Shown: positions 41,972 through 51,779 of the stretch, in pieces
How positions within the stretch are numbered: position 1 is the stretch's first letter
Layout of the letters: the number at the start of each line of letters is the position of its first letter
Source of the DNA: a bacterium
GTDB lineage: Bacteria > Patescibacteriota > Dojkabacteria > SC72
Reading direction: 5' to 3'
Length of the DNA stretch: 64,000 nucleotides
NCBI GenBank assembly: GCA_022840695.1
Contig: JALHDC010000001.1
Location: 169,281 to 233,280, forward strand
Translations under genes and position numbers: made by a program
Notes under the pieces: model-generated
Databases searched by the model: none
The model's input: the letters and a program-made list of their open reading frames with translations, nothing else
Told to the model about the DNA's origin: nothing

Positions 41972-42515
41972 ATACATTTCAACAGAATGGCTTAAACTAC
42001 ACATGAGAGAAACAGAAGTTATTATGAAAGCCTTAGCAAAACACTTTGGAGAAGATGAAGAATTATGGGGAACATCAGGACTACTTCATGACCTAGACTA
42101 TGACTATGTAGAAAAAGATCCTCAAAGACATGTTGTTGAATTTGACAAAATATTGGAAATGGAAAATTTGAAAATAGGGGAAGATATCCCAGAAGATATG
42201 TATCATGCAATTAAGGCCCATTACGAAGAACATCCTCAAATATCACAAAAGAGAGAATCAAAACTAGACTATTCTCTAAGTGCTGCAGAGAATATTTCTG
42301 GATTTTTAGTAGCATGTGCATTAGTACAACCAGATAAAAAGATATCTAGTGTTGGAGTAGAGAGTGTAATGAAAAAATTCAAGAAAAAAGATTTTGCAAA
42401 AGCAGTAAACAGAAGTTTAATTTATGATATAGAAAAAACAGGTCTTTCCTTGGAAGATTTTATTAAAATATCCTTAGATTCTGTTAATGAAATTAGTAAT
42501 GAAATTGGGTTATAA
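41934..42515 (+). CDS. HD-domain phosphohydrolase
   Basis: H...HD pattern (LHMRETEVIM...SGLLHDLDY...D). Confidence 0.45.
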   Translation: MITREKAQQLLDKYISTEWLKLHMRETEVIMKALAKHFGEDEELWGTSGLLHDLDYDYVEKDPQRHVVEFDKILEMENLKIGEDIPEDMYHAIKAHYEEHPQISQKRESKLDYSLSAAENISGFLVACALVQPDKKISSVGVESVMKKFKKKDFAKAVNRSLIYDIEKTGLSLEDFIKISLDSVNEISNEIGL

Positions 42516-42524
42516 TATCAACCA

Positions 42525-42598
42525 CGGGGTGTAGTTCAGATGGCTAGAACGCTTGCATGGGGTGCAAGAGGTCGCTCGTTCAAGTCGAGTCACCCCGA
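42525..42598 (+). tRNA. tRNA-Pro (anticodon GGG), CCA not encoded
   Basis: Cloverleaf read by hand: acceptor cggggtg/caccccg, D arm gttcagatggctagaac, anticodon stem cttgc/gcaag with loop atGGGgt, T arm gctcgttcaagtcgagt. Preceded by tataatatcaa. Confidence 0.8.
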
Positions 42599-42620
42599 CT
42601 CCTAATGAATATCTCAATAA

Positions 42621-42629
42621 TGGTATAAT
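42621..42629 (+). promoter_or_regulatory. Extended -10 promoter (tggtataat) for the thioredoxin module
   Basis: TGnTATAAT lies 33 nt upstream of the GTG start of the thioredoxin gene. Confidence 0.4.
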
Positions 42630-42662
42630 AGAAGATATACTTAATTTCTCTTAATCTCATCA

Positions 42663-42929
42663 GTGAAAGTTCTTAAATTCGGTGCAATATGGTGTTCTGG
42701 ATGTTTAGTAATGAAACCAATATGGAAAGAAATTGAGGAAGAACTCTCTTGGCTTCAGACAGAATATTACGATGTAGATGAACAGAAAGATGTTTCAAAA
42801 AAATATGATATAGTTGATTTGCCCACTTTCATATTTCTAGATCAAGATGGAAATGAAATACATAGGGAAATAGGAGAGATAGGGAAAGAGACAATGATAG
42901 AAATAATTAACATGTACAAGAATAGATAG
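42663..42929 (+). CDS. Thioredoxin (GTG start)
   Basis: 88 aa. WCSGC active site in a thioredoxin-fold context (KVLKFGAIWCSGCLVMKPIW...DLPTFIF). Confidence 0.75.
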   Translation: MKVLKFGAIWCSGCLVMKPIWKEIEEELSWLQTEYYDVDEQKDVSKKYDIVDLPTFIFLDQDGNEIHREIGEIGKETMIEIINMYKNR

Positions 42930-42933
42930 AATC

Positions 42934-44175
42934 ATGAAGAAAGTAATAACAAAGATTTTGATAACCCTTTTTCTCTTCTTAACAGTATTTCTCTTCTTTT
43001 CTTCAAACAAATTAAATGCTCAAGAAGAGACAGAGAATTTGGAAACAGCAAAAGTTCTAAACCTACACTTTTTCCAAGGTATTGGTTGTCCTCATTGTGC
43101 TAAAGAAAAGGAATTTTTAAAAGGAGTGAAGGAGCAGTATGAAGAGAGAATAAAGATAAATGATTATGAAATATATTACAATCAGAAAAATCAGAAATTC
43201 TTTAACAAAGTAATAGAGGAATTAGAAATAGCTAGAGCGGGGGTTCCTCTTTTAGTAATAGGTGAGGAATATATAATTGGGTATTCTGATGATGAAACTA
43301 CAGGGGTGCAGATAATAGCTGCTATTGAAAGAAATCTTAATTCTGAATCAAAGGATATCGTTTCCGAGCTACTCGCTCAGGATCAAAATCCCCAAGAGCA
43401 AGAAGAGGAACTCCCAGAAGATACCTCTCCAATATATTTAAATATACCAATATTTGGAAAGATCAATCTTAAAAGTGTATCACTTCCTTTAGGAACTATG
43501 ATAATTGCTCTCTTAGATGGCTTTAATCCTTGTGCTATGTGGATATTAATATTCCTAATAACCATGTTAATTAACATGAAGGATAGGAAGAAGCTGTATA
43601 TACTTGGATCAGTATTTATAATTACATCTGGACTTGTATATTTTGTATTCTTAGCAGCTTGGTTAAATTTCTTTAAATATGTAGGGTTTGTATATTGGAT
43701 AAGGAGTGTCATAGGAGTAGTTGCAGTTGTAAGTGGAATATTACATCTCAAGGATGCTTTCAGTAATAAGGGGGAGTGTCGTGCTACAGATGAGAAAAAG
43801 AGAGAAACCGTGATGGAGAAAATAAAGAAAGTTCTTTCTGAGAAAAGCTTCATATTGGCAATTATAGGTATAGTAACATTAGCAATATCAGTAAATTTGA
43901 TAGAAGTTGTTTGCTCTGCAGGACTACCAGCAGTATATACCAGCTTGCTCTCTTCAGTACCTTTAAGTAACACTGAATACTATCTCTACCTTATACTCTA
44001 CATAATAATCTTTATGTTAGATGACCTAATAGTCTTTTTCATAGCAGTAAGGACATTTGAAGTAACAGGTATTGCTAAGAAATATACCAAATGGTCTAGT
44101 ATCATCGGAGGCATAATAATATTAGCTTTAGGAATAATATTAATAGTAAAACCTGAGCTATTAATGTTTGGATAA
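42934..44175 (+). CDS. Membrane thiol-disulfide oxidoreductase: an extracytoplasmic thioredoxin-like domain (CPHC) fused to a CcdA/DsbD-type six-TM electron-transfer domain
   Basis: N-terminal signal. FFQGIGCPHCAKEKEFL in a thioredoxin-like region. Six TM helices with single Cys in TM1 (GFNPCAMW) and TM4 (VVCSAGLP), as in CcdA/DsbD. Confidence 0.5.
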   Translation: MKKVITKILITLFLFLTVFLFFSSNKLNAQEETENLETAKVLNLHFFQGIGCPHCAKEKEFLKGVKEQYEERIKINDYEIYYNQKNQKFFNKVIEELEIARAGVPLLVIGEEYIIGYSDDETTGVQIIAAIERNLNSESKDIVSELLAQDQNPQEQEEELPEDTSPIYLNIPIFGKINLKSVSLPLGTMIIALLDGFNPCAMWILIFLITMLINMKDRKKLYILGSVFIITSGLVYFVFLAAWLNFFKYVGFVYWIRSVIGVVAVVSGILHLKDAFSNKGECRATDEKKRETVMEKIKKVLSEKSFILAIIGIVTLAISVNLIEVVCSAGLPAVYTSLLSSVPLSNTEYYLYLILYIIIFMLDDLIVFFIAVRTFEVTGIAKKYTKWSSIIGGIIILALGIILIVKPELLMFG

Positions 44176-44184
44176 TCTCATATC

Positions 44185-44841
44185 ATGTCTAGAAAAAAGA
44201 AAAAGAAATTTGAGGAAATGAAATCATTTCCTAATGTATTGCAATGGGATGATGAAGATGTGAAGGGGAAAGTAAAGAAAATAATTAATCAGTATGAAAA
44301 AGTAATATTAGAATTAGCATGTGGAAAGGGAGAATACTCTCTACATTTAGGAAATAAATACAGAGATACATTAATCATAGGTATAGATATTCAAGGAGAG
44401 AGGATATGGAAAGGAGCTAAGGATGCTTTAGAGAAGAATTTAAATAATGTATATTTTCTTAGAATTCAAATACAAAATATAGAAGAATATATTTCAGAAA
44501 ATAGTATTGATGAAATATGGATTACATTTCCAGATCCTTTTTTAAGAGAAAGAGATATTAAAAGAAGATTAACATCTCCTAACTTCTTACATATTTATAA
44601 AAAGATTTTAAAAAAGAATGGAATTATACATTTAAAAACAGATTCTGATGAATTGTATGAATATACATTAGAAACTATTAATTCTATGAAATTGAATATA
44701 TTAAAAAATATATCTGATATATATTCATTTGGGGATATAGAAAATGTTACAAATGTACAGACTACATTTGAAAAGAAACATTTAGAAAATGGAAAGAAGA
44801 TTAAGTATCTAGAATTTAATTTTTACATAATCTTTTCTTAA
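44185..44841 (+). CDS. trmB: tRNA (guanine46-N7)-methyltransferase
   Basis: LELACGKGEYSLHL, IGIDIQGERI, WITFPDPF match TrmB. Confidence 0.85.
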   Translation: MSRKKKKKFEEMKSFPNVLQWDDEDVKGKVKKIINQYEKVILELACGKGEYSLHLGNKYRDTLIIGIDIQGERIWKGAKDALEKNLNNVYFLRIQIQNIEEYISENSIDEIWITFPDPFLRERDIKRRLTSPNFLHIYKKILKKNGIIHLKTDSDELYEYTLETINSMKLNILKNISDIYSFGDIENVTNVQTTFEKKHLENGKKIKYLEFNFYIIFS

Positions 44842-45426
44842 AAAAGGATGCCTGTCTACATCTCTCTGTAAAAATGCTCCTCCAAAGAAATCATTAGTTC
44901 TACCACAGACTAGATTATAGAATTTATCCAAATCTTCCTCTTCTGTACTGTAATCTCTCAATACAAACTGAATTATTTGTTGCAAAGAAGTCTCGTCTGT
45001 AGTTGGTGATATATTATCATCAGTTATAATGTCTAGGAAAAAAGCATGAGCTATATTTTCAATGTCCTGCCTTATACACTCCGAATTAAAATCAACTCTC
45101 TCTGCTAATGGTACATCTTCCTCTATGAATTCACCTTCCTCATCTTCATCATCATCTTCATTCCCAAAATGTTCTGCATCAAGTATCTCAAGCTCTGTTG
45201 CCATGATATGTGTTTTCTCTTTGAGGTATCTTAGAGTTATCCTTGTATCCATATATTCACCTAATTCATACAGAAGTATCTGCTCTAGTGATGTTAGACC
45301 GTTTCTTCGTGAAGGATTGTCATCTGTAATTTCATTTAGGAGTAATGCATCTGCAATTTCTTCCAATCTCTCCTCTATGATATCCATTTTGCTAAGAGGA
45401 TCCTGTTCTAGTTCGAAATCTTCCAT
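44809..45426 (-). CDS. Acidic protein with an internal duplication, hypothetical
   Basis: Two ~35-aa repeats (IADALLLNEITDDNPSRRNGLTSLEQILLYELGEY and IAHAFFLDIITDDNISPTTDETSLQQIIQFVLRDY). Very acidic. Confidence 0.3.
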   Translation of the reverse strand: MEDFELEQDPLSKMDIIEERLEEIADALLLNEITDDNPSRRNGLTSLEQILLYELGEYMDTRITLRYLKEKTHIMATELEILDAEHFGNEDDDEDEEGEFIEEDVPLAERVDFNSECIRQDIENIAHAFFLDIITDDNISPTTDETSLQQIIQFVLRDYSTEEEDLDKFYNLVCGRTNDFFGGAFLQRDVDRHPFLRKDYVKIKF

Positions 45427-46184: not shown

Positions 46185-47084
46185 ATGAGAAAAAAGAAAA
46201 AAGAAATTTCTTTTAAAGAGTATATTGATATAGCCTGGTGGTCTCTTAGGGTGAGCTGGGGAATATCAAAATGGGCTACATTGGGAGCATTATCAACTGA
46301 AGTCATTAGGAATCTCAGACCAATTATTAATACATATGTTTTTGCTAAGTTAATAGATAAGTTAGTAGCATGGGCTGTTAATGATTCTGCGAATATTAAG
46401 GATCTCTTTCCATATATTTTGATACTGTTAGTCTTAGACATATTCTTTTCAGCCATAGGAGAACTTCGTGGATACAGTACAGGAGTCTTGAGGAGATTAT
46501 CTGGATCATATCTGGATAAAATGGCTTATGAAAAAGTAAATTATCTTGGTGCTCAAACAATAGAATTACCAACTGTAGCTAATGCTCATCAAAGAATGAA
46601 AGATTGGTTAGGATTTACTTTGGAAGTTGGTGCTAATGTCTTAAGAATCATATCAGCAACAATCAAAACAATTGTTGCTGGAGTAATAATCTATAAATCT
46701 ATTCCAATAGTTATTCCAATGGTCTTGGCTGTTTCCTTTGCATTCTTTTTGCAAAGAAAATATTTCTTCAAGAAAGAATTTGATTGGCAAACAAATGATG
46801 ATCATGTTACTAGAAGAAGAATGAACGGTTGGGTAGCTGGAAGATTAGCAGATCCAAGAGACTTAGGGGAAATATCAATAACGGGAGCTTTTGGATATTT
46901 AAATAGAAAATTTGTTGAATTCTACAATTACTACAATCGTGGGCTTTTAAAAATAATGAAAAGTGCTACTCTTGGGAGCTTCCTACTTTCTGTATTAGGA
47001 AACTTTGTATTGATGGTAGGATATATACAGGTGTTTGGTCTTCTTTTGTTAAAAAAATATCCATTGGTGATACTACATTCTTGA
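46185..47084 (+). CDS. ABC exporter transmembrane domain (six TM), encoded as a separate ORF
   Basis: 299 aa with ABC_membrane-like six-helix topology. Its stop overlaps the start of the ATPase ORF (TGATG). Confidence 0.7.
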   Translation: MRKKKKEISFKEYIDIAWWSLRVSWGISKWATLGALSTEVIRNLRPIINTYVFAKLIDKLVAWAVNDSANIKDLFPYILILLVLDIFFSAIGELRGYSTGVLRRLSGSYLDKMAYEKVNYLGAQTIELPTVANAHQRMKDWLGFTLEVGANVLRIISATIKTIVAGVIIYKSIPIVIPMVLAVSFAFFLQRKYFFKKEFDWQTNDDHVTRRRMNGWVAGRLADPRDLGEISITGAFGYLNRKFVEFYNYYNRGLLKIMKSATLGSFLLSVLGNFVLMVGYIQVFGLLLLKKYPLVILHS

Positions 47085-48004
47085 TGAGTTCAATCGATAG
47101 CTTCTATGACGGAATAGAGTATCTTTTTGGTGAAATAGTTGTATTTAGAGACTTTGTTATGAAAAGCAGGGAGGTTTATAATTTCTTCAACTTAGAACCT
47201 TGTATCGAAGATGGAAATACTTTCCTTCCTCGATTTGAAGAACCACCTTTGATAGAGATAAAGAACATATCCTTCAATTATCCTAATGATAAGAGAAAGA
47301 TATTTGATAATTTCTCGTTAAGAATAGAGAAAGGAGAAAAAATAGCTATAGTAGGTGCAAATGGTGCAGGTAAAACAACCTTAGTTAAGTTACTTTCCCG
47401 TATCTATGACCCTTCGGATGGAGAGATATTTGTAAATGGTATTAGTCTAAAGGATATTAAGATAGATGATTGGTACAAGAATTTAGGAGTTCTTTTCCAA
47501 GACTATAACTTCTATGGGGAGTTAACTGTTGAGGAGAATATATATATGGGTAAGTCTGTTAAGAAGATAGATAAAGAAAAGATTATAGAAGCTGCTAAGA
47601 ATGCTGATGCTCACGAATTCATTATGAAGTATAAGCATAAATATAATACGATTATGAGTGAAAGGTTTAGAGAGGGGATAAGGCCAAGTAATGGACAGAA
47701 GCAAAAAATCGCTATTGCTAGATTCTTTTACAGAAATGCTCCTGTTGCTATATTTGATGAACCTACATCTGCAATAGATGCAGAATCAGAGTATAGAATA
47801 TTTAATAGAATATATGAATTTTTTGCTAATAAAACTGTATTAATAATTTCTCACAGATTTTCTACAGTTAGAAATGCAGATAGAATAATTGTATTAGATG
47901 AAGGAAAAATAGTAGAGGAAGGTACACATGGGGAACTAATGGCAAACAAGAAGAAATATTATGATGCTTTCACAAAACAGGCTGAAGGTTATACTAAGGA
48001 GTAG
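47084..48004 (+). CDS. ABC transporter ATP-binding domain (includes the linker region normally fused to the TMD)
   Basis: Walker A GANGAGKTTLVKLL. Signature-like SNGQKQKIAIARF, Walker B IFDEPTSAID, H-loop ISHR. Confidence 0.85.
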   Translation: MSSIDSFYDGIEYLFGEIVVFRDFVMKSREVYNFFNLEPCIEDGNTFLPRFEEPPLIEIKNISFNYPNDKRKIFDNFSLRIEKGEKIAIVGANGAGKTTLVKLLSRIYDPSDGEIFVNGISLKDIKIDDWYKNLGVLFQDYNFYGELTVEENIYMGKSVKKIDKEKIIEAAKNADAHEFIMKYKHKYNTIMSERFREGIRPSNGQKQKIAIARFFYRNAPVAIFDEPTSAIDAESEYRIFNRIYEFFANKTVLIISHRFSTVRNADRIIVLDEGKIVEEGTHGELMANKKKYYDAFTKQAEGYTKE

Positions 48005-48722: not shown

Positions 48723-49427
48723 ATGAAAAAAATACTCTTAACCATACTATTTCTTTTAATTCCTTTTGGTATTACATATGCATATACATTGGAAGATGTG
48801 CAAGATCATAACACTCCTGGGGATTGTTGGATGATATTTGAGGAAAAGGTATATGACTTCTCAGAATATATACCATCTCATGACAAATATCTGGATATTA
48901 GAGAGTGGTGTGGTTTGGATATGACAGAAGATTTTAAGAGCAAGGGCGATTTAGGGAGAGATCATAGGGAATCAACATATGCTCTTCTAGAAATGTACGA
49001 GATTGGAGAGCTAGAAGCTACGGAGGGGAATGAGGTAGATTTAGTAGATGCAGAGATTATTTTGACTGAAGAGAGTAATGAAGATCAAGAGGTGGTAAAG
49101 GGTAGGAAGTATAATTTAGTTATACCTTTTCTCATATCAGTAATTACATATTGGAGTGGATATTTCTTAACTAAGAAAAATAAATTTTTTGGTTTAACAC
49201 TTGTTAAGTTTAATGCATTTTGGAATAGTATTCTTTTCTTAACACTACTTGTTCCTGCATTAGGGTTTGGGATTTTCATGGTAATTCGTACACAGAAACC
49301 TGAATTATGGAATATAGATTTTGATTTTCTGTATTGGCATGTAGAACTATCTATGGTTATGGGTATATTAGGGATGAATCATTTCATACAGCGGTTAGGA
49401 ATATATTTCAAACAATTGAAGAAGTAG
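48723..49427 (+). CDS. Cytochrome b5-like heme-binding domain protein, secreted/membrane (N-terminal signal, C-terminal TM helices)
   Basis: YTLEDVQDHNTPGDCWMIFEEKVYDFSEYI aligns with the b5 consensus (ytleEvakHn...cWvaihgkVYDvTkFl). The HPGG motif is replaced by PSHDKY. A second His lies in GRDHRES. Confidence 0.45.
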   Translation: MKKILLTILFLLIPFGITYAYTLEDVQDHNTPGDCWMIFEEKVYDFSEYIPSHDKYLDIREWCGLDMTEDFKSKGDLGRDHRESTYALLEMYEIGELEATEGNEVDLVDAEIILTEESNEDQEVVKGRKYNLVIPFLISVITYWSGYFLTKKNKFFGLTLVKFNAFWNSILFLTLLVPALGFGIFMVIRTQKPELWNIDFDFLYWHVELSMVMGILGMNHFIQRLGIYFKQLKK

Positions 49428-51026: not shown

Positions 51027-51779
51027 ATGGCAAATTCAAAAAAGAACGAGAAAGAAATGACTATTAACTTGGATACATTGGGAGTACCAATAGCTATCAT
51101 AGTATCAGGAATACTCATTGCTACAATGATATTTTTTGCTTCTAGGAATAATAACAATGTAGATAACGGAGCTGGGGATGATACTACTAATGTGGCTGAT
51201 GAGGGTACAGATGCACCTGTTGATTCTGAAATTAGTTTAGGTGATGATCCATATTTAGGAAATGCAGAGACTGCTAAAGTTGCTGTCATTGATTTCAGTG
51301 ACTATCAGTGTGGGTATTGTCAAAGACATAGTACTGAGGTATATCCAAGTATTAAGGAGAACTATATTGATACAGGGAAGATATTGTATGTATTTAAGGA
51401 ATTTCCTTTAAGTGGTGCTGGTCAGATTGGGTATGTAACTGCAGAGGGTGCATCATGTGTGTTCAATCTTTCAGATAGTGAGACATATGCTAAGTATCAT
51501 AAGGATGGATTCTTTCTTAATAGTAAGAGTGAGGTTGTATCATTGGCTACAAGCTTAGGTATAAATGAGGGTGAGTTTAATGCATGTTTAGATGAGGGTA
51601 AATATCAAGATGAGATAGAGGCAGATCAAACAGAGGGACAGGGTGCTGGTATTTCTGGTACTCCTGGTTTTGTAGTTGGATTGATAGGGGAGAATGGAGT
51701 TATACAGAATGCTACATTGATAGCAGGAGCATATCCATATGATACATTTGTTAATGCTATTGAGAAGTTATTAGAGTAA
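51027..51779 (+). CDS. DsbA-family thiol:disulfide oxidoreductase, membrane-anchored
   Basis: N-terminal TM. Thioredoxin fold with CGYC (FSDYQCGYCQRH) and the DsbA-like C-terminal GTPGFVV block. Confidence 0.7.
   Translation: MANSKKNEKEMTINLDTLGVPIAIIVSGILIATMIFFASRNNNNVDNGAGDDTTNVADEGTDAPVDSEISLGDDPYLGNAETAKVAVIDFSDYQCGYCQRHSTEVYPSIKENYIDTGKILYVFKEFPLSGAGQIGYVTAEGASCVFNLSDSETYAKYHKDGFFLNSKSEVVSLATSLGINEGEFNACLDEGKYQDEIEADQTEGQGAGISGTPGFVVGLIGENGVIQNATLIAGAYPYDTFVNAIEKLLE

Follow-up and report, generated by a model that had tools for sequence, protein, structure and literature searches.

To the authors' knowledge, thiol-disulfide exchange across membranes is known from few scaffolds, with DsbD, CcdA and ScsB serving reduction and DsbB, VKOR and, more recently, MauE serving oxidation. 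In mycobacterial DipZ, a CcdA-type membrane domain recognisable as PF02683 is fused to a C-terminal extracytoplasmic thioredoxin-like domain. In the DsbD pathway, DsbC and DsbG as terminal acceptors are maintained in the reduced state although they match DsbA in oxidising power. Organisms of the CPR and DPANN are, as far as is known to the authors, without quinones and most of the known Dsb machinery. The design of CcdA comprises six transmembrane helices (TMs) in two repeats, with the active cysteines on TM1 and TM4 (PMC7329351), and DsbD and ScsB are alpha-beta-gamma electron hubs (PMC3322552).

Within the window, meaning the whole stretch of 64,000 nucleotides that was analysed, a pair of adjacent genes was found to encode a small thioredoxin and a membrane protein. 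The latter belongs to a family that follows the logic of CcdA but has its own motifs, conserves a third cysteine and is fused to a DsbA-like head. The features of the pair are as follows:

42663..42929, + strand: small cytoplasmic thioredoxin, 88 aa, GTG start, W10-C11-S-G-C14, cis-Pro P54; presumed electron donor
42934..44175, + strand: 413-aa fusion of a signal peptide, an extracytoplasmic glutaredoxin (Grx)-sized thioredoxin (Trx)-fold domain and a six-TM, cysteine-bearing membrane domain (predicted)
42934..43023, + strand: signal peptide or N-terminal anchor, aa 1-30, with K-rich n-region, hydrophobic core and LNA|QEE; from reading of the sequence, with a modelled helix at 2-22
43045..43383, + strand: predicted extracytoplasmic Trx/Grx-fold domain; C52-P-H-C55 at 43087-43098, V104-cisPro105 at 43243-43248
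43480..44148, + strand: predicted six-TM membrane domain, aa 183-405, N-out/C-out; from AF2 helices, conservation and positive-inside counts
43531..43533, + strand: Cys200 codon (TGT), at the TM1 break; invariant (151/151), aligned with the CcdA TM1 SPC cysteine in hhalign
43777..43779, + strand: Cys282 codon (TGT), in cytoplasmic loop 3, a basic loop; 129/151 (85%), Ser/Thr in the remainder
43912..43914, + strand: Cys327 codon (TGC), at the TM4 break; invariant (151/151)

The gene pair and its neighbourhood

A preliminary description of this locus had named a cytoplasmic thioredoxin with a WCSGC motif, and this identification holds. The 88-aa ORF matched the Pfam Thioredoxin model (PF00085) above its cut-off (E = 6e-12; 45.8 bits against 23.5), WCSGC occupies codons 10-14 (42690-42704), the invariant cis-proline is present as P54 and the dipeptide of the WCxxC motif is not GP. 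The Pfam alignment covers profile positions 22-101 and, because it begins only at position 22, the protein appears to be N-terminally short, with the first strand and helix missing; a signal peptide is likewise absent from the predicted product. The start of 42621 given previously is 42 nt too early, the GTG lying at 42663 with an in-frame TAA eight codons 5' of it. This GTG is taken as the real start since the 88-aa form, with the sequence MK[VI]LK.GA.WCxGC, is kept across other phyla. It should also be noted that some gene callers choose an alternative start at M17, which gives 72 aa and loses the CxxC. The spacing between the two ORFs is exactly 4 nt (AATC, 42930-42933), in agreement with the gap first reported. 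A thioredoxin reductase (TrxR) or CcdA was sought in ten other ORFs of the window and neither was found.

The suggestion that the membrane protein is coupled to a cytoplasmic thioredoxin gains support from conserved synteny. Of 74 species-level loci, 39 have a small thioredoxin gene as the immediate upstream neighbour of the family gene, always in the same orientation. These 39 come from CPR phyla, Bacillota-labelled MAGs and one Bathyarchaeia MAG; in most cases, and in phyla far removed from one another, the spacing falls between roughly -30 and +16 nt. These neighbouring thioredoxins are about 88 aa long with the characteristic motif WC[SPNA][GSA]C, never WCGPC, and constitute a dedicated subfamily. 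In a few Parcubacteria (3-5 loci) the thioredoxin is replaced by a Grx-like gene and a TrxR-like flavoprotein whose redox centre is CLTC, and such operons point to a reduction that may be driven by NAD(P)H or ferredoxin. No adjacent Trx, Grx or TrxR was present in 32 of the 74 loci.

Other genes recur less often near the family loci. These include ArsR, an ArsP_1 permease, Trx_3, an ArsG-like DsbD_2, ZIP, P-type ATPase and cation-efflux genes, each in fewer than 20% of loci compared with more than 50% for Trx. A cytoplasmic 1-Cys peroxiredoxin is encoded directly downstream in one Dojkabacteria locus (L006); it was rejected as an extracytoplasmic substrate due to its lack of a signal peptide. 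The DsbA-type and cytochrome b5 partners which had been proposed could not be retained as conserved partners, being found within 4 kb in only 2/86 and 1/86 loci, respectively.

Domains and affinities of the membrane protein

The sequence and an AF2 model of the 413-aa protein (pLDDT 82) agree with the earlier account of a signal peptide, a CPHC thioredoxin-like domain and a six-TM domain within one protein. In the model, the outer domain has a beta-alpha-beta-alpha-beta-beta-alpha Trx/Grx fold in which C52-P-H-C55 opens helix 1 and V104-P105 precedes strand 3, and the N-domain is thereby predicted to have the whole Trx fold, CxxC and cis-Pro included. It reached E = 0.024 and 15.3 bits against the glutaredoxin model PF00462 (cut-off 22.9), a model matched by 49 of 70 scanned family members at E<=1, the best at 4.6e-9. 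A search of PDB sequences with the family profile returned only DsbA, Trx and Grx matches, all of them on the N-domain, the best being DsbA proteins (E = 8e-7) with both flanks of the fold matched. CPHC is found in about 100 of 133 N-domains of the family, with valine preceding the cis-proline. The Pfam DSBA model (PF01323) gave no match to the window protein, and the helical insertion is also absent from the AF2 model. The domain order, with the Trx domain first, had been considered unusual; it is the norm across the family. In long homologues (520-575 aa) the outer domain is tandemly duplicated, with CPHC followed by CPLC, and a fused cytoplasmic Trx was rejected as an explanation for their length, the extra part being this second outer domain.

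The CPHC domain is predicted to lie outside, as had been supposed, with loops 1, 3 and 5 inside. This prediction follows from the positive-inside counts, from the net charge of -9 of the N-domain after a signal peptide (n-region net charge +1.9 across the family) and from one permuted homologue in which the Trx domain is placed after TM6. Over 151 sequences, the K+R counts were 1.5, 8.0 and 1.8 for loops 1, 3 and 5 and 0.3, 0.2 and 0.8 for loop 2, loop 4 and the C-terminus. Six long helices are modelled, with breaks at 197-198 in TM1 and 328-329 in TM4. The invariant motifs of the membrane domain are D195-G-F-N-P-C200 (TM1), N321/E324/C327-S-A-G-x-P332 (TM4) and D363-D364 (TM5).

Conservation of the cysteines was counted over 151 family representatives at 50% clustering. 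The single cysteines described for TM1 and TM4, Cys200 and Cys327, are both present and are found in every one of these homologues; as a full cysteine count the description fell short, as it missed Cys282. This third cysteine lies in a strongly basic loop of 30 residues between TM3 and TM4 and was present in all 86 loci of the neighbourhood analysis, leaving no variation for a correlation with an upstream Trx. An internal 3+3 repeat was not detected, the hhalign comparison of half 1 with half 2 giving P = 0.044, equal to the reversed control.

The assignment of the membrane domain to CcdA/DsbD in the preliminary description was not supported by the HMM searches. In Pfam and NCBIfam, no DsbD (PF02683) or DsbD_2 (PF13386) match to the window protein was obtained at E<=10, DsbD and DsbD_2 gave none to 10 divergent homologues, and both were absent from the 25 families matched most often when 70 members were scanned at E<=1. 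A search of the PDB with the family profile found no chain of CcdA or DsbD at E<=10. Comparison by hhalign with 120 Bacillaceae CcdA sequences gave a probability of 52.8% (P = 1.4e-4, 196 columns, against P = 0.11-0.26 for reversed-sequence controls) in an alignment that pairs the TM1 cysteines of the family and CcdA and does not pair those of TM4. With 120 CPR DsbD_2 (ArsG-like) sequences the result was null (1%, P = 0.05, no better than the controls); CcdA versus DsbD_2, used for calibration, reached 98% (1.9e-13). The nearest solved fold was CcdA (5vkv), which was not significant (Foldseek E = 0.79, TM 0.39-0.42), and no DsbB, VKOR or MauE-type folds were among the top 60 structural matches. 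As judged by these sequence comparisons, the membrane domain cannot be recognised as belonging to DsbD/CcdA.

Among the Pfam families, SfLAP (PF11139) alone aligned collinearly with the membrane domain, at scores below threshold and in 6 of the 70 scanned members at E<=1. Its best match spans TM1-TM5 and aligns residues 226-398 of one member (P0053) with profile positions 3-161 of 213 (E = 1.4e-4; 21.8 bits, cut-off 35). GAP proteins are, to the authors' knowledge, lipid-addressing transporters for which no catalytic cysteine pair or redox partners are known. SfLAP/GAP (TC 2.A.116) is placed in the LysE superfamily, in which the majority of families transport metal ions (PMC4608589).

The membrane domain is best read as a distinct, widespread and uncharacterised family of the CPR, DPANN and some Bacillota. 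Clustering at 50% identity divides it into approximately 2,500 clusters, and the species-level genomes that carry it, mostly of CPR bacteria and DPANN archaea, number in the hundreds. The family is without a Pfam or NCBIfam model of its own, no existing model of either matched the membrane domain above threshold, and a search of the literature for this family in CPR/Patescibacteria returned nothing specific.

Proposed relay and alternative readings

With moderate confidence, the two genes are proposed to form a transmembrane thiol-disulfide relay which works reductively, like CcdA/DsbD. Support for this comes from the closely spaced gene pair, from the conserved synteny with the dedicated Trx or, in Parcubacteria, with Grx and a TrxR-like gene, from the invariance of Cys200 and Cys327 at the helix breaks of TM1 and TM4 and from the CcdA-like design. 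The hhalign P-value against CcdA relative to the reversed controls, the predicted outward position of the N-domain and the Trx fold modelled for it also speak for the relay. The inferred course of the relay, including its direction, the part played by Cys282 and its substrates, would be as follows. A flavoprotein of the thioredoxin-reductase type, encoded elsewhere or, in some Parcubacteria, in the same operon, would keep the small WCSGC thioredoxin reduced, and this thioredoxin would in turn reduce a Cys200-Cys327 disulfide at the TM1 and TM4 breaks, in the middle of a six-helix domain resembling those of the LysE superfamily. Cys282 in the cytoplasmic loop probably assists in accepting or resolving the disulfide that is shared with Trx. 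The reduced membrane pair could then, by alternating access, reduce the CPHC disulfide of the tethered outer Trx-fold domain. This domain, expected to be of high potential and DsbA/DsbC/DsbG-like, may act on surface or secreted proteins, either by isomerising disulfides or by reducing cysteines that have been wrongly oxidised or sulfenylated. Counted against a reductive relay are the lack of HMM placement, the weak CcdA fold and profile scores, the TM4 motif mismatch, the lack of a 3+3 repeat and the 32 of 74 loci without Trx, Grx or TrxR.

Also counted against a reductive direction is CPHC with Val-cisPro, the active site of DsbA, an oxidase. The same hardware could be run in reverse as an oxidative-folding module for quinone-less cells, with the outer CPHC domain as a DsbA-like oxidant, which is considered unlikely. 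Electrons would then move inward via Cys327 and Cys200 (and Cys282) to the dedicated cytoplasmic Trx and on to cytoplasmic acceptors such as peroxiredoxin or ribonucleotide reductase, disulfides in effect being exported. The frequency of CPHC among the N-domains, the valine before the cis-proline as in DsbA and the DsbA proteins as best PDB sequence matches would all suit an oxidant. The motif itself does not settle the direction, because DsbC and DsbG are equally oxidising and are yet kept reduced. The N-domain is also without the DsbA helical insertion, which counts against an oxidant. On the cytoplasmic side, the partner Trx never carries the strongly reducing WCGPC and a peroxiredoxin follows directly in L006, both as expected of inward flow, whereas the operons in which Grx and a TrxR-like flavoprotein are encoded just upstream favour a donor that is reduced. 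Recent papers stressing unfilled gaps in bacterial disulfide-forming pathways would leave room for an oxidative module (bioRxiv 10.64898/2026.03.05.709764; PMC12453122). Little probability is also given to a disulfide conduit that arose independently in the LysE superfamily, nearer to GAP/SfLAP than to DsbD and oxidising outward in quinone-less CPR and DPANN, in which cytoplasmic disulfides would pass to the WCxxC Trx, then to Cys282, Cys200 and Cys327 and finally to the CPHC domain. If true, such a conduit would be the missing DsbB/VKOR equivalent in the oxidative folding of proteins by organisms without a respiratory chain.

A role in the handling of thiophilic metals or metalloids (Hg, Cu, Cd, Zn, As), with the ion passed across the membrane in a MerP-MerT-like manner or sensed by the outer CxxC domain, the intramembrane cysteine pair with its Asp/Asn/Glu neighbours, the loop cysteine and the cytoplasmic CxxC protein, is decidedly unlikely. 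It would account for the invariant D195, N198, N321, E324, D363 and D364 in the TM core beside the cysteines, and the only sequence-level hint for the membrane domain is to the LysE superfamily (SfLAP/GAP), composed mostly of metal-ion movers (PMC4608589). The recurring metal- and arsenic-type neighbours would also be explained, but each of them is far less frequent than Trx, the N-domain keeps the CxxC and cis-Pro signature of an oxidoreductase rather than a metallochaperone fold, and the link to TrxR suits thiol-disulfide chemistry. That the genes are uncoupled, with a general Trx beside a LysE/GAP-type exporter that has an anchored redox domain and structural cysteines, would fit the loci without adjacent Trx, the failure of the membrane domain in all DsbD-family HMM tests and the weak SfLAP similarity, but is highly improbable in view of exactly two mid-membrane cysteines invariant at helix breaks over 151 divergent clusters and of a Trx of its own subfamily, with a characteristic motif, held tightly upstream across distant phyla.

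The reductive relay would be a compact system of two genes and five cysteines. Since quinones and most Dsb machinery are lacking in the CPR and DPANN, the family may be their main means of redox control of surface cysteines.

Comparison with described systems

With SfLAP/GAP, the family shares an arrangement of six TMs as 3+3, TM3 and TM4 being joined by a large hydrophilic loop. With DsbA, it shares CPHC and the valine before the cis-proline, and the family profile matches Neisseria DsbA to either side of the fold. The N-domain differs from DsbA in its size of approximately 110 residues, its Grx topology without the helical insertion, and in being tethered to a membrane domain with a cysteine pair instead of being partnered with DsbB or VKOR. 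DipZ similarly combines a membrane domain and an extracytoplasmic Trx-like domain in one chain; however, the Trx-like domain of the present family is not C-terminal and its membrane domain is not recognisable as PF02683.

As in DsbD and ScsB, a cysteine-bearing conduit and extracytoplasmic redox domains are found in one chain which would be fed by a cytoplasmic Trx, and the two tandem outer domains of the long forms recall a two-step outer relay. DsbD and ScsB have eight TMs, an N-terminal Ig-like alpha domain and a C-terminal Trx-like gamma domain, whereas the family has six TMs, one or more N-terminal Grx-sized outer domains and, except in rare permuted forms, nothing after TM6.

The resemblance to CcdA (PF02683; Thermus thermophilus, PDB 5VKV) lies in six TMs with a predicted N-out/C-out topology, mid-membrane cysteines on TM1 and TM4 (essential in CcdA), a TM1 motif of [S/N]-P-C, a cytoplasmic thioredoxin presumed to be the donor, with an extracytoplasmic Trx-fold acceptor, and weak collinear profile similarity. 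The family differs in its TM4 motif of E-x-x-C-S-A-G-x-P (here E-V-V-C-S-A-G-L-P), compared with T-P-C-x-G-P in CcdA, and the P-C-x-x-P signature is not repeated in both halves, only the N-P-C of TM1 resembling S-P-C. It also has the additional cytoplasmic Cys282 with its basic loop 3 of 30 residues, invariant acidic residues in TM1, TM4 and TM5, and an acceptor that is fused N-terminally, whereas CcdA stands alone. The family could serve as a second, independent sample for the elevator-type mechanism that has been proposed for CcdA.

The thioredoxin gene and the fusion gene

The gene encoding the small thioredoxin and the gene encoding the fusion protein are arranged as follows:

42525-42599, + strand: tRNA-Pro(GGG), preceding the thioredoxin gene
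42663-42929, + strand: 88-codon thioredoxin ORF
42934-44175, + strand: 413-codon fusion ORF, after a 4-nt gap (AATC)
44185-44841: TrmB-like methyltransferase, after a 9-nt gap

The tRNA ends 63 nt before the thioredoxin gene. A promoter-like site (ATGAAA-18-TATAAT, 10/12 match) is present at 42487-42516, and no terminator-like site was found between this site or the tRNA and the thioredoxin gene. These four genes may form one transcript. The closest contigs have the gene order of the window. On the minus strand, a very acidic 205-aa ORF (44809-45426) has an apparent internal duplication of ~90 residues, with EE..IA.A..L..ITDDN....T.LQQI.. in each half and no Pfam family on record.

The start of the thioredoxin ORF had been placed at 42621 in the preliminary description, 42 nt too early, as an in-frame TAA eight codons upstream leaves the GTG at 42663 as the only possible start. 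The ORF is matched by Pfam PF00085 (45.8 bits, cut-off 23.5) with the alignment beginning at profile position 22, the initial strand and helix seen in classical thioredoxins being absent. It has no signal peptide and its active site, W-C-S-G-C, is encoded at 42690-42704. Some automatic gene calls choose Met17 as the start, by which the CxxC is lost. The 88-89-aa form, starting MK[VI]LK.GA.WCxGC, is kept across Dojkabacteria and Peribacteria loci, which shows the long form to be real.

Structure, topology and conservation of the fusion protein

An AlphaFold2 model of the fusion protein (59-sequence alignment, mean pLDDT 82) has an N-terminal hydrophobic helix (aa 2-22), an outer domain (aa ~40-136) with a compact beta-alpha-beta-alpha-beta-beta-alpha Trx/Grx fold (pLDDT >90), an acidic linker with a short hairpin and six long C-terminal helices. 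In the outer domain, helix 1 opens with C52-P-H-C55 and strand 3 is preceded by V104-P105. TM1 and TM4 are broken at 197-198 and 328-329, with Cys200 and Cys327 exactly at the breaks. The 30-residue basic loop that joins TM3 to TM4 holds a third membrane-domain cysteine, Cys282, which had gone unmentioned.

The extracytoplasmic location proposed earlier for the CPHC domain agrees with several features of the family. Among 151 representatives, mean Lys+Arg counts were 1.5, 8.0 and 1.8 in loops 1, 3 and 5 and 0.3, 0.2 and 0.8 in loops 2, 4 and the C-terminus. The N-domain follows a signal sequence whose n-region is basic, and its own net charge is -9. In homologue P0153 the membrane domain comes first and a Trx-like domain follows TM6, and TM-only members also exist. 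Together these observations put the CPHC domain on the outer face along with both ends of the six-TM core, and loop 3 with its Cys282 in the cytoplasm.

The single cysteines previously noted in TM1 and TM4 proved invariant (C200 and C327, each 151/151 representatives), as are D195, N198, P332 and Y356; N321, E324, D363 and D364 are nearly so. At position 282, 129 representatives have Cys and the other 22 Ser/Thr. The outer CxxC, mostly CPHC, is present in 132 of 133 domain-bearing sequences, and the residue before the cis-Pro is Val in 113. In around one third of the family, helix 3 of the outer domain is followed by an additional C-x4-C pair; the window protein has lost this pair (N134, S139). 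Long forms of 520-575 aa (P0051, P0063, P0067, P0098, P0104, P0106 and P0112) have a GCPHC domain, a GCPLC domain and then the membrane domain; a fused cytoplasmic thioredoxin was considered for them and rejected, the extra length being the second outer domain.

The window protein has >7,800 matches in a 90%-clustered database, the closest named relatives being Candidatus Dojkabacteria, and with the membrane domain alone 2,478 clusters (50% identity) are matched at E<=1e-3. When GTDB was scanned with one genome for each species, at least 506 matching stretches were confirmed. Those listed belong to many CPR phyla, Aenigmatarchaeota, Bathyarchaeia, Bacilli, Erysipelotrichaceae and Mollicutes MAGs and some proteobacteria-labelled MAGs; the taxon labels of co-assembled MAGs should be read with caution.

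Relationship of the membrane domain to CcdA and DsbD

The membrane domain of the window protein has no Pfam or NCBIfam match at E<=10, and no model for the domain was found in either database. No DsbD/CcdA HMM matched ten divergent homologues, neither family is among the 25 most frequently matched by 70 scanned members, and a family profile found no CcdA among PDB sequences. Using hhalign, the family was aligned with 120 real CcdA proteins (seed verified against 5VKV) at a probability of 52.8% (P=1.4e-4, 196 columns), with N-P-C of TM1 opposite S-P-C of CcdA; reversed-sequence controls gave P=0.11-0.26. The comparison with 120 CPR DsbD_2 (ArsG-like) proteins gave no signal, its P of 0.05 being that of the controls, whereas CcdA against DsbD_2 in the same set-up reached 98% (1.9e-13).

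Six of the 70 scanned members matched Pfam SfLAP (PF11139) collinearly below threshold, as with residues 226-398 of homologue P0053 against positions 3-161 of 213 (E=1.4e-4, 21.8 bits, cut-off 35). SfLAP is the GAP family, placed by Tsu and Saier alongside DsbD in the LysE superfamily, whose six-TM core is of 3+3 type, with TM3 and TM4 separated by a large hydrophilic loop (PMC4608589). No internal repeat was detectable by sequence. It is fair to describe the six-TM domain as LysE-superfamily-like, with CcdA as the nearest solved structure. Its functional design is that of CcdA, but membership of the DsbD/CcdA family, to which it had earlier been assigned, is not demonstrable. Literature searches found no paper describing the family, whose members are labelled in the source records only as "thioredoxin family protein", "glutaredoxin" or "hypothetical".

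Genomic neighbours and the proposed relay

Among 80 genome loci, 74 had enough upstream sequence. In 39 of these a small thioredoxin gene precedes the family gene by <=200 nt on the same strand, in 3 a TrxR-like gene is present and in 32 neither. The motif of the thioredoxin neighbours is always WC[SPNA][GSA]C and never WCGPC, so they form a dedicated subfamily; other Dojkabacteria and Peribacteria have the 88-89-aa form directly upstream. In Parcubacteria/Paceibacteria two genes stand upstream, one for a Grx-like protein of 83-84 aa (C[SP]YC) and one for a TrxR-like flavoprotein of 306-307 aa. The flavoprotein has a CLTC redox centre and two motifs for dinucleotide binding; it is without the HRR NADPH-specificity motif and so may use an electron donor that is not NADPH. 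Further neighbours recur far less often than the small thioredoxin: cysteine-desulfurase-like (16 loci), DUF134 (15), YibE/F-like membrane protein (12), DUF5320 (11), ArsP_1 permease (9), ArsR (7), P-type ATPase (6) and ZIP (5). Two arrangements directly precede the family gene:

Grx-like and TrxR-like genes (Parcubacteria): L007 3826-4990; L009 3838-4996; also L016, L020, L088
ArsR - Thioredoxin_3 - ArsP_1 permease - DsbD_2: L008 149-4015; L009 2218-3833; L010 576-3602; L019 2405-3532

The DsbD_2 gene of the latter carries the NCBI name ArsG-type aromatic aminobenzylarsenical efflux permease, and DUF134 and DUF5320 genes also recur.

DsbA-like (CGYC) and cytochrome-b5 proteins had been suggested as clients. 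In the window their genes are 5-7 kb distant, and only 2/86 and 1/86 loci have such genes close to the family gene. The former (51027-51779) is membrane-anchored (Thioredoxin_4/DSBA), its CGYC being a DsbC-type dipeptide, and is a possible client or partner. The latter (48723-49427, 234 aa) carries a cytochrome b5-like haem-binding domain (Pfam E=8e-13) along with a signal peptide and TM helices at its C-terminus. The genome is CPR-like, and the b5 domain would apparently be extracytoplasmic. An ABC exporter at 46185-48004 is split into two ORFs with a 4-nt overlap (299-aa TM domain, 307-aa ATPase), called identically on a related contig.

A reductive relay is favoured and considered probable. 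The cytoplasmic thioredoxin would hand electrons to Cys282 and/or the Cys200-Cys327 pair, these to the outer CPHC site, and the CPHC domain to surface proteins. The TrxR-like flavoprotein sharing the operon in some lineages argues for reductive flow. The CPHC/Val-cisPro site is DsbA-like and is expected to have a high potential, as would suit a DsbC/DsbG-type terminal oxidoreductase, kept reduced as an isomerase or sulfenic-acid reductase. The site would also suit flow in the reverse, oxidative direction, which is judged rather unlikely. For CPR and DPANN cells, which are not known to have quinones, the oxidative direction would be of real interest if true. Acidic residues within the TM core and the metal- and arsenic-related neighbours would suit a relay of thiophilic metals or metalloids, which ranks weaker and is improbable. 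An uncoupled LysE-type exporter is the most unlikely, given the invariant cysteines and tight synteny with thioredoxin.

In the DsbD superfamily (DsbD, CcdA, ScsB), electrons pass from cytoplasmic thioredoxin to extracytoplasmic Trx-fold proteins (PMC3322552), and all elements of this logic are found here in two genes: a dedicated cytoplasmic thioredoxin, a mid-membrane cysteine pair and an outer, tethered Trx-fold domain. The six TMs of CcdA form two inverted repeats, and its active cysteines on TM1 and TM4 are thought to shift between faces (PMC7329351); the present family likewise has six TMs and invariant cysteines on TM1 and TM4. It differs in its own motifs, namely DGFNPCAxW, NxxExxCSAGxP, the TM5 DD pair and the cysteine of loop 3. 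The best-rated reading is a CcdA-design transmembrane thiol-disulfide relay carried by a distinct membrane family that is very widespread.
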